From the IMG/VR virus record IMGVR_UViG_3300005253_000053: a stretch of 64,000 nt of DNA; one strand, given 5' to 3'. Shown in pieces: positions 12,900 to 14,707 of the stretch. Every line of letters starts with the position of its first letter. Within the stretch, counting starts at the first letter, position 1. Made by a program: the position numbers and the translations under genes. The stretch comes from a virus (taxonomy: Duplodnaviria; Heunggongvirae; Uroviricota; Caudoviricetes). The notes beneath the pieces were generated by a model that was not told where the DNA came from, did not search any database, and worked only from the letters and a program-made list of their open reading frames with translations.

Positions 12900-14036
12900 C
12901 TACTTTGTGGCTTCCACTACGGCAGACAGATTCCGCCGCGTGTGGTACCGACTGTTGTCCGGAAGCTGGCCCGTCTCTGAGAAACCGGCCTCCCGGCAAA
13001 GATGACTGATCGATTCGTAGTCGTACCCGTACTGGTGGCCATACTCACCCATGCCCACGAGGTTGTCCATGAACTTGTCCGCCAGTGTCGGACCCTTCCA
13101 GATCGGGTTCTCCGATGGCTCGTAACGCTGGTCCCACCACTCCTCATCGCCCGCCAAATACTTCTCGGCCGCGAGTCGCAGATCCGGGATCGAGGCCACC
13201 AGCTTTGCGCCCGGCTTGAGGACCCGGTAGATCGACTTGACCACCTTGAGCCCGTCCACCCGAGGGATGTGCTCCAGCATGTGCTGGCAGACCGCGAAGT
13301 CCACGGAGTTGTCTCCGAACGGGAGACCGTCCTTCACGACATCGCGCAGGATGTACCTACTGCGATTCCGCGTCACACCTGAAGCGGGCCAGATATCCAG
13401 TCCAGTGAATCCCTCATAGCGGCTGCCCCGGCCACCGCATCCTACGTCGATCATCAGATCCATGCTCATGTCCTGGATGCGAGCAAACCCCATGGACTGC
13501 ACGATTCCTGCCTCCACGGTTCGCTTGTGCGGAATGACGAAGTTATGCCACGCAGACCACACGTCCTCAAAGACTGAGCGGCAGTCGTGAGCCGCGATCA
13601 TCCCCCCAGACGCGACTTTGGGAAGCCACGCTTGGAAGTCCTTCAGCGGGTTGCCTCTCTCGTGGTTACCGTCGATGAAGATCAACGCGGCGGACTTCAC
13701 CTTGGCAACTGCGTCTACGGACGGAAGTCGGTGAACAGTAAAGTCTTTGCCGCGCTCCAGGCCGCAGGCGTCCATGTTGTCCAGAAAATCGTTGAAGACC
13801 TCATAGCCACTTTGCTCACCAAAGGGCTTGGACCCGTCGATCCAAGGATCGACGCAGATCAGATGACGGCCCAATTCCTGACACACGACACCGAACTGAG
13901 ACGCCGAACGTCCCTTGTAGCAACCAACCTCGACGACAGGGCCGTCAACACGAAGGCGGCGGACCCAGGCTTCCAACTGGGTCATCTGGGGCTCGGCCAT
14001 GTGCCCAGGAACATCTTCGGGTTTCAGCGTGGCCAT
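12900..14036 (-). CDS. tandem class I SAM-dependent methyltransferase (two methyltransferase domains fused)
   Basis: N-terminal VVEVGCYKGRSA (O-methyltransferase family 3-like) and C-terminal IDVGCGGRGS...LPFGDNSVDFAVCQHMLEHIP (Methyltransf_11-like). Confidence 0.7.
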   Translation of the reverse strand: MATLKPEDVPGHMAEPQMTQLEAWVRRLRVDGPVVEVGCYKGRSASQFGVVCQELGRHLICVDPWIDGSKPFGEQSGYEVFNDFLDNMDACGLERGKDFTVHRLPSVDAVAKVKSAALIFIDGNHERGNPLKDFQAWLPKVASGGMIAAHDCRSVFEDVWSAWHNFVIPHKRTVEAGIVQSMGFARIQDMSMDLMIDVGCGGRGSRYEGFTGLDIWPASGVTRNRSRYILRDVVKDGLPFGDNSVDFAVCQHMLEHIPRVDGLKVVKSIYRVLKPGAKLVASIPDLRLAAEKYLAGDEEWWDQRYEPSENPIWKGPTLADKFMDNLVGMGEYGHQYGYDYESISHLCREAGFSETGQLPDNSRYHTRRNLSAVVEATK

Positions 14037-14707
14037 AGATTTAGTGCCTCATACAGTCGAGTCAGTCGAGGTAAACTGGCGATTAGATCCTTGATGTAGC
14101 GAATTGTATCTGGGTGCCAGTGGTCGGGTCCAGGCAGTTGTCGCCGGTCACGAGTTGCGTTCCGATCAATGTCCCAGTTGATACGGCCCACATCGATTTC
14201 CACACCGAGGTGCTTTGCGAGCTTCTGTAGTCCTTCAGGAGTCGTGTATTCTGTGAAACTCCAGTGCGTGAACTGTAATCCCAACTGGTGCGCCAAAGAG
14301 ACCGACGCCTCCAAGTCACCAAAAAGCGCAGCAGCGCAGCGACGTAATTGGGAGTTCAACAGGAACTCACGTGTACTCCGCAGCGACTCTTTCGGACACC
14401 CGGAACGCAGGCAGTCCAGCGGGTTACGCCATACAAAGTTCCATTGAGGATGAACGGCCTCATCAATCTCCCGCATAAACCCACGTGCAGAGTTGTTAGA
14501 CATGCCCACGACAGGTGCGTCAAGCTGTACCCAACCCTGAAACCCTTGTGGCCAGAAGCACTCTATCGGTGTGTTGTCACCTCGACCAGGACTCCAGGTG
14601 AATGGCTCGTGGACGACAATGGCGTTCTCACCCTGATTGAGCATATTTGCCAGGAACATCGTTCCTGATCGACCCGCCCCAGTTAGTACAAAATATCGCT
14701 TGTTCAT
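14024..14707 (-). CDS. sulfotransferase family protein
   Basis: Start at MNKRYFVLTGAGRSGTMFLANML: P-loop-like PAPS-binding 5'-PSB motif of sulfotransferases; start chosen by hand within the track ORF. Confidence 0.55.
   Translation of the reverse strand: MNKRYFVLTGAGRSGTMFLANMLNQGENAIVVHEPFTWSPGRGDNTPIECFWPQGFQGWVQLDAPVVGMSNNSARGFMREIDEAVHPQWNFVWRNPLDCLRSGCPKESLRSTREFLLNSQLRRCAAALFGDLEASVSLAHQLGLQFTHWSFTEYTTPEGLQKLAKHLGVEIDVGRINWDIDRNATRDRRQLPGPDHWHPDTIRYIKDLIASLPRLTRLYEALNLWPR

Follow-up and report, generated by a model that had tools for sequence, protein, structure and literature searches.

Sulfation is a common cellular means of tuning glycans and proteins, and the locus considered here raises the question of whether a bacteriophage carries a sulfotransferase of its own and, if so, on what such an enzyme would act. 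The gene concerned (14024–14707) lies on the minus strand of a 64,000-nucleotide stretch of viral DNA (IMG/VR record IMGVR_UViG_3300005253_000053, Caudoviricetes), referred to below as the window. The window is phage DNA that encodes a portal protein, a large terminase, and 36 tRNAs, together with an SbcCD-like nuclease, RecA, and a PIF1 helicase. Sister assemblies of this DNA derive from marine sediment runs (PRJNA259156), and the source is apparently a large uncultured marine-sediment phage with an apparently lytic, T4-like lifestyle. An original prediction, made from the sequence alone, held that the gene product begins with a P-loop of the kind that binds 3′-phosphoadenosine 5′-phosphosulfate (PAPS), that methyltransferases flank it on both sides, and that such enzymes are almost unknown in phage genomes. 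The analysis reported here indicates that the protein almost certainly belongs to the superfamily of PAPS-dependent sulfotransferases, in which the bacterial Sulfotransfer_3 group stands nearest to it. On motif and gene context we put at roughly 60% the probability that it is a cytoplasmic PAPS-dependent O-sulfotransferase, which would modify a glycan together with the glycosyltransferases and methyltransferases of its operon and draw its PAPS from the host.

Fold, motifs, and family of the protein

The sulfotransferase-fold gene runs from an ATG at 14707 to a TGA at 14024–14026 and specifies 227 amino acids (aa) beginning MNKRYFVLTGAGRSGTMFLANML; residues 6–23 are FVLTGAGRSGTMFLANML, the motif on which the original prediction was built, and both the open reading frame (ORF) and the motif were therefore correctly located. 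A mechanical ORF list had extended the same frame to a TTG at 14938 (304 aa, 14024–14938). ATG 14707 is nevertheless the likely start, because the aligned homologues all begin at the equivalent methionine and because this codon overlaps the upstream stop codon as ATGA, and the longer ORF was dropped as the true gene. Comparison with the closest homologue, an 88% identical protein from another metagenome (P0001), gave a dN of 0.06 and a dS of 0.76. At a dN/dS of ~0.08, 14024–14707 is a real gene under strong purifying selection.

Relatives of the protein are few. P0001 was the single homologue returned by a word-indexed search of 5.8 billion proteins, and when 1.84 billion cluster representatives were searched exhaustively with phmmer, 44 proteins came up at E ≤ 1e-3, two of which were spurious tetratricopeptide repeat (TPR) proteins. 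Forty family members were aligned (alignment A1), and when the resulting profile was compared with the PDB, 23 of the 27 matches at E ≤ 10 proved to be sulfotransferases, among them TPST1/2, SULT7A1, the CurM sulfotransferase, plant SOTs, SULT2A1, NodH, and Stf9. The top match was SgdX2, and the alignments span both nucleotide-binding motifs. In a Pfam scan of single members, Sulfotransfer_3 was matched by 21/40 (best 8.6e-9) and Sulfotransfer_1 by 10/40, and every other Pfam family by one member at most; no sulfotransferase family was matched in a PHROG scan of the same 40 proteins. A relative found later (L022 8978–9739) passes the PF13469 gathering score (30.0 vs. 27 bits). The window protein itself falls below the 27-bit gathering threshold of Sulfotransfer_3 (PF13469), with no match even at E ≤ 10. 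Since it scores nothing against Pfam, its assignment rests on family-level and structural evidence, and it is better placed in a sister clade within the Sulfotransfer_3-like superfamily than counted as a recognised member of PF13469.

The clade is small, very divergent, and found mostly on phage-like contigs, and neither PHROGs nor the deposited phage genomes contain it. Nucleotide and translated searches (blastn/tblastn) with the locus, the protein, its relative P0005, the second L006 sulfotransferase, and two canonical sulfotransferases of L022 gave no match among 50,697 deposited phage genomes. A search of IMG/VR with peptide patterns of the window protein recovered no relative, an exact 42-mer from the end of the window gave no match, and a 10-sequence alignment brought in no more than three distant relatives from IMG/VR and a single new metagenome locus.

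Modeled by AlphaFold with the A1 alignment, the protein reached a predicted local distance difference test score (pLDDT) of 90.5 and a predicted template modeling score (pTM) of 0.89; the model from the single sequence was unusable (pLDDT 40). The predicted fold is that of the superfamily, a single alpha/beta domain with a central parallel sheet and the sulfotransferase-specific extensions, and the top 21 Foldseek matches in the PDB are all sulfotransferases. The superfamily has a 5′-phosphosulfate loop of the form x-(K/R)-(S/T)-G-(T/S)-T/x after strand 1; in the window protein it reads G10-A-G-R13-S14-G15-T16 and aligns with GRTGT in SgdX2, PRSGTT in TPST1, and PKSGTHW in SULT7A1; R13 is present in 33/38 members (with Lys in one more) and T16 in 35/38 (with Ser in the other three). 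The motif for the 3′-phosphate reads W93-R94-N-P96-L-D-C-L-R-S102, with R94 in 40/40, P96 in 37/40, and S102 in 39/40 members, and R94 and S102 are separated by 8 residues, as in the aligned VRDPVQWHRS of SgdX2 and VRNPKDTAVS of SULT7A1. In the superfamily, the Arg of this motif closes a strand and the Ser, 8 residues on, opens a helix. The conservation of R13, T16, R94, and S102 across the 40 members means that the motif is more than a chance resemblance. The sulfotransferase fold and both PAPS motifs are present in the window protein, which retains every conserved PAPS-motif residue.

In sulfotransferases the catalytic base stands after strand 2, and is His in the cytosolic SULTs and Glu in TPST and the heparan-sulfate enzymes. 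The candidate residues of the family are H33 (36/40 members) and an acidic residue at 34 (40/40), and E34 of the window protein aligns with the second Glu of the TPST1 GEE sequence, the residue that serves as base in TPST. The window protein has neither a signal peptide nor a membrane segment, which argues for action in the cytoplasm.

The sulfotransferase fold is related to that of nucleoside monophosphate (NMP) kinases, and the original prediction had named a best profile match to a generic P-loop kinase as the result that would count against it. That the protein is a generic nucleotide or sugar kinase is scarcely credible, as profile, structure, and residues all point to sulfotransferases. 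The loop reads GAGRSGT and lacks the Walker A pattern GxxxxGK[S/T], a Walker A scan of all window ORFs did not pick out this one, the R94…S102 motif is sulfotransferase-specific and aligns in SgdX2 and SULT7A1, and the Pfam matches of the 40 members contain no kinase family. Structural alignments extend over ~125–150 residues for kinases, which match the core alone, as against 174–200 for sulfotransferases. The kinase explanation was rejected on these grounds, and the call of a PAPS-loop sulfotransferase is sustained by the family profile, whose best matches are sulfotransferases, by the Sulfotransfer_3 matches, by the lack of a Walker A motif, and by three relatives that adjoin adenosine 5′-phosphosulfate (APS) kinase genes, as described below.

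Operon, donor supply, and acceptor

Seven genes of the same strand lie tightly packed here (12900–20081; Table 1), the sulfotransferase gene being the sixth. At five of their six junctions a stop codon overlaps a start codon, and from this arrangement the gene is predicted to be translationally coupled within a seven-gene operon. The block begins two genes downstream of the portal gene, on the same strand as the packaging and head genes, and its first gene (17673–20081) encodes a glycosyltransferase; altogether the operon specifies three glycosyltransferase domains and four methyltransferase domains. The predicted flanking methyltransferases are borne out by Pfam matches to Methyltransf_11/25 upstream and to Methyltransf_24 and Methyltransf_11 downstream. 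The start of the downstream gene overlaps the sulfotransferase stop by 13 nt. Its product is 100% identical to LCGC14_0165300, a hypothetical protein of a marine sediment metagenome (NCBI), and the same two-domain gene follows the sulfotransferase on the contig of the 88% identical homologue. Further upstream, the CgeB-like glycosyltransferase gene probably starts at ATG 17075, preceded by GGAGG. The gene for the 193-aa protein overlaps with its start the stop of the glycosyltransferase gene before it, and its product has no match in Pfam or PHROG. The portal gene shows 26% identity to portal genes of large myoviruses (tblastn). A scan for promoters and terminators across 9–25 kb of the window gave signals not above shuffled background.

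Table 1. Genes of the seven-gene block and the packaging genes upstream of it (window coordinates)
Feature	Position	Strand	Features and matches
Two-domain methyltransferase, 378 aa	12900..14036	-	Pfam: N-terminal Methyltransf_24, C-terminal Methyltransf_11
Sulfotransferase-fold gene	14024..14707	-	227 aa; G10-A-G-R13-S-G-T16 loop; H33-E34 candidate base; R94...S102 motif
Class I S-adenosylmethionine (SAM) methyltransferase, 234 aa	14704..15408	-	Pfam Methyltransf_11/25; stop overlaps sulfotransferase start (ATGA)
Class I SAM methyltransferase, 223 aa	15405..16076	-	Pfam Methyltransf_11/23/25; ATGA overlap with next gene
CgeB-like glycosyltransferase (Glyco_trans_1_2)	16077..17075	-	Pfam PF13524, 8.4e-20
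193-aa protein of unknown function	17092..17673	-	ORF; CxxC...CxxC near N-terminus
802-aa double GT4-type (GT-B) glycosyltransferase	17673..20081	-	Pfam Glycos_transf_1 + Glyco_trans_1_4; PHROG glycosyltransferase
Portal protein, distantly T4 gp20-like	20870..22570	-	phrog_213, 6.5e-35
Large terminase subunit	22563..24620	-	phrog_2

Two small proteins are encoded downstream of the module on the same strand. In one (10434–11270), an internal Met precedes a signal-peptide-like segment and a stretch rich in Ala and Pro, and the other (12004–12570) ends in a poly-Gln/Pro tail; to regard their products as candidate glycan acceptors or envelope-directed proteins is pure speculation.

Genomic contexts were retrieved for seven family members, and relatives of the window gene are genomically linked to APS kinase, methyltransferase, glycosyltransferase, and polysaccharide genes. 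At L003 9382–11263, two family members stand in tandem, the first a stand-alone protein and the second (P0008) a fusion with an N-terminal Methyltransf_24 domain; a GT1/GT9 glycosyltransferase gene also precedes P0008. The phage-like contig encodes a tape-measure protein, and the module follows the tape-measure and tail genes; downstream of the tandem pair are genes for an RfaE-domain-II-like ADP-heptose synthase and a radical SAM enzyme. Loci L004 and L006 carry genes for NeuB, a CMP-sugar synthetase, Maf/MptE-like and radical-SAM/SPASM proteins, an FkbM-type methyltransferase, a pyruvyl-transferase, and GT1/CgeB-like proteins, and at L012 a GT2/GT9 protein is encoded upstream of the family member. 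At L022 (5085–12926), three consecutive sulfotransferase genes, two canonical and then the family member, are followed by genes for a GT9 glycosyltransferase and a methyltransferase. They lie in a low-GC polysaccharide cluster with a Wzx-type flippase, and since this cluster looks cellular, the clade is not strictly viral. An integrase-like gene is situated upstream of the L022 cluster. From the operon and the glycan genes that accompany the relatives we infer a sugar acceptor, part of a glycan built by the phage.

The use of PAPS by the family is strongly suggested by association, because three independent relatives, each 36–38% identical to the window protein (P0004 at L004, P0005 at L006, and P0007 at L010/L011), adjoin a gene for an APS kinase–nucleotidyltransferase fusion (L004 1351–2274, L006 9027–10004, and L010 1556–2317). 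The fusions are compact proteins of 253–325 aa, with the order of the domains reversed in L010 relative to L004 and L006. Those of L004 and L006 pass the NCBIfam cut-off for adenylyl-sulfate kinase (TIGR00455; 223 and 219 vs. 138.7 bits) and are 40–51% identical to APS kinases in the phage database, one of which is annotated as adenylylsulfate kinase. The nucleotidyltransferase half resembles nicotinamide mononucleotide adenylyltransferase (NMNAT), and we found no description of an NMNAT-like nucleotidyltransferase–APS kinase fusion. This half might be a non-canonical sulfate adenylyltransferase, in which case the fusions would be minimal PAPS synthases that replace the canonical ATP sulfurylase.

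If the protein is an enzyme of the kind proposed, the N-terminal strand-loop-helix (G10-A-G-R13-S-G-T16) would hold the 5′-phosphosulfate of PAPS, and R94 and S102 its 3′-phosphate. The H33-E34 pair at the end of strand 2 would deprotonate the acceptor hydroxyl, which would then attack the sulfur, and 3′-phosphoadenosine 5′-phosphate (PAP) would depart with R13 stabilizing it. Late in infection, the glycosyltransferases of the operon would build the glycan, which the methyltransferases and the sulfotransferase would subsequently decorate. Virion proteins are the most plausible bearers of this glycan: head or tail genes lie close by in the window and in L003, the phage is apparently lytic and T4-like in its lifestyle, and mycobacteriophages offer a precedent for virion glycans. 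A glycan of the host envelope is the alternative. Catalytic activity, the identity of the base, the glycan acceptor, and the site of glycan attachment are in this scheme deduced from conserved residues and neighboring genes.

Several points weigh against this reading and bear on how firmly it can be held. Searched alone, the window protein drew no match from Pfam (even at E ≤ 10), NCBIfam, PHROGs, or the sequences of the PDB, and the E-values of the family profile against the PDB are marginal (best 0.0017). The catalytic activity of every family member is putative, and the evidence presented here bears on the identity of the acceptor indirectly. TPSTs, which sulfate protein tyrosines, score as well as the carbohydrate sulfotransferases, and for this reason a protein sulfotransferase resembling TPST or RaxST, with a tyrosine or hydroxylated residue in some phage or host protein as its direct target, has to be considered. 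Sulfation of hydroxylated tail-collar or collagen-like proteins has been predicted (Iyer et al., PMC2938197). No gene for a peptide substrate or a dioxygenase was found beside any family member, however, and we regard protein sulfation as unlikely.

Two further points concern the donor and its loop. The closest homologue (P0001) has Gln in place of R13, so that R13 may be dispensable or the P0001 copy may be impaired. Searches of the 64-kb window for an APS kinase or an ATP sulfurylase, whether by tblastn and phmmer with the fusion proteins or by a Walker A scan combined with Pfam, were negative, and the flanks recovered from sister assemblies (~7.6 kb on the right side, ~9.2 kb on the left) likewise yielded no PAPS-synthesis gene. 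The ORFs with a Walker A motif in the window encode TerL, the PIF1 helicase, RecA, and a weakly dNMP-kinase-like protein, the last of these being the only small P-loop ORF (29932–30513). The search spanned ~80 kb, roughly half, of the 152.9-kb source contig; with no such gene over that distance, the donor is presumably host PAPS, which is taken as the working assumption. Both the R13Q substitution in the nearest homologue and the lack of a PAPS supply gene within ~80 kb would also suit a catalytically inactive protein of sulfotransferase fold, serving as a binding or scaffold subunit of a glycan-modifying complex. Such a role is decidedly improbable, because the PAPS-motif residues are conserved: the window copy retains all of them, R94, S102, and the acidic residue 34 are invariant or nearly so across the family, and the dN/dS value is low.

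Past the right end of the window, at L017 347–1357 (~70.2–71.2 kb in window coordinates, ~6 kb beyond the window), is a gene for a 336-aa PAPS_reduct-family protein. It resembles ATP pyrophosphatases of the DndC/PAPS-reductase type and scores far below every curated cut-off; the protein offers no evidence for sulfate activation and may be a DNA or RNA modification enzyme. This DndC-like gene is among the observations that would fit another kind of acceptor (for instance a small metabolite, a lipid, or a hypermodified base or sugar of DNA) or the use of sulfate as a leaving group, as with CurM/OLS and retinol dehydratase. The structural matches of the window protein include StaL, Teg14, the CurM/OLS sulfotransferase, retinol dehydratase, and Cpz8, the fold serving many chemistries, and phage glycosyltransferases can act on DNA (review text quoted in PMC12619734). 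Against these stand the lack of polyketide, non-ribosomal peptide synthetase (NRPS), or lipid genes nearby and of a hydroxymethyl-pyrimidine pathway beside the module, the presence of neighboring GT4- and CgeB-like glycosyltransferases of the types usual for polysaccharide or protein glycosylation, and the position of the L022 relative within a Wzx-type polysaccharide cluster. An acceptor or chemistry of this sort is accordingly improbable, and the O-sulfation of a glycan with host PAPS remains the favored reading.

A more elaborate proposal, which we consider possible but doubtful, is that virion proteins carry a glycan which the phage itself assembles, methylates, and sulfates with this enzyme; a linked possibility is that the NMNAT-like–APS kinase fusions of the relatives act as a minimal PAPS synthase. 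A virion glycosylated in this way would bear a methyl-capped coat of negative charge, which could affect its adsorption, its aggregation in sediment, or its recognition by host defenses. To our knowledge, no sulfate has been reported on any phage glycan, and we know of no earlier example of a sulfated glycan on a bacteriophage particle.

Other features of the phage DNA

The 36 tRNA genes, which suggest a very large phage, form two minus-strand clusters (33491–39379 and 45958–54254), and one contig that carries this DNA falls in the 0.2–1 Mb size bin. One of the tRNAs (45958–46034) has a CTA anticodon and is an amber suppressor, labeled ‘Pyl’ by ARAGORN, and another (52523–52603) received an odd two-base anticodon call.

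Unusually for a phage, a 925-aa protein encoded at 30611–33388 (−) combines a Major Vault Protein shoulder domain (PF11978, 5.8e-28) with Vault_3 and SPFH/Band_7 domains. The PIF1-like helicase gene at 41603–44263 (−) is split by an intein with a LAGLIDADG homing endonuclease (PF05970, PF14890, and PF14528). Candidate counter-defense genes occur at 1–786 (−) and at L019 10429–11250 and 17143–18291: a metallo-beta-lactamase-fold gene that matches the anti-Pycsar gene Apyc1 and is cut by the left end of the window, and, a few kilobases to its left, an AcrVA2-like gene and a 2H-SAK gene. A 551-aa protein with a very long Pro/Ala-rich low-complexity center and Cys-rich ends, for which no family is on record, is encoded at 59400–61055 (−), between the RecA-like gene and a small ORF beside the DNA polymerase gene. 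That polymerase (61625–64000, −) belongs to family A and is cut by the right end of the window; its sister copy (L017 6914–9949) is a 1011-aa protein with an N-terminal uracil-DNA-glycosylase domain (PF03167, DNA_pol_A_exo1, and DNA_pol_A).

Relation to known sulfotransferases and phage glycans

The view that sulfotransferases are almost unknown in phage genomes was overstated, since phage sulfotransferases have already been annotated elsewhere. Proteins so named are listed in BFVD for Synechococcus phage S-SCSM1, Xanthomonas phage FoX4, Prochlorococcus phage P-SSM7, and uncultured Caudovirales, and Sulfotransfer_3 genes have been described in OM43-phage genomes and in Synechococcus phage S-SRM01, with their function in phages considered unclear (PMC10580990). 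Annotated sulfotransferases of phages and giant viruses share the fold of the window protein (BFVD matches with E-values of 3e-5 to 6e-2), but the phage proteins show no detectable sequence relation to it and no PHROG match, and TM-scores are 0.4–0.6. Among phage-encoded sulfotransferases we found none whose substrate or role is known. The gene studied here defines a mostly phage-borne clade that Pfam, NCBIfam, and PHROGs miss, and which is placed among glycosyltransferases, methyltransferases, and, in relatives, dedicated APS-kinase genes. It provides a testable hypothesis, that of phage-directed synthesis of a sulfated and methylated glycan, and the family sequences can be used as a profile with which to annotate other viral genomes.

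Among the closest known enzymes, the bacterial Sulfotransfer_3 proteins, represented by that of Alicyclobacillus acidocaldarius (PDB 3rnl), are somewhat longer (~250–300 aa) than the 227-aa window protein, and as 3rnl has no assigned acceptor, no function can be transferred from it. The heparan-sulfate 3-O-sulfotransferase and N-sulfotransferase domain (PDB 3bd9, 7sce, and 1nst) show 12–14% identity with the window protein. These Golgi enzymes of eukaryotes bind their acceptors in long clefts, and the likeness seen is one of fold. TPST1/2 are the best named matches of the family profile and have the same spacing between the loop Arg and the acidic candidate base (21 residues from R13 to E34), but they are ~100 residues longer and possess a peptide-binding groove and a dimer interface, and the genomic context of the window protein is glycan-related rather than peptide-related. 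R13 and E34 presumably correspond to Arg78 and Glu99 of TPST2 (Teramoto et al., 2013).

Glycans on the capsid and tail tube of mycobacteriophages offer a precedent for the proposed product (Freeman et al., 2023, as cited in PMC12619734). In common with the virion glycosylation modules of phages and giant viruses, the window module encodes viral glycosyltransferases that would act late and in the cytoplasm on virion proteins, and it follows the terminase and portal genes; the difference is that virion targeting is proposed here from gene position. A second parallel is found among cellular enzymes of sugar modification. NodH and Stf0 O-sulfate sugars and are encoded beside genes for sulfate activation (NodPQ and CysNC). 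The same arrangement is seen in the relatives of the window protein that adjoin APS-kinase fusion genes, and NodH and Stf0 are themselves among the matches. In these respects a known enzyme class is extended into an under-described viral niche, and nothing in the established view of that class is overturned.

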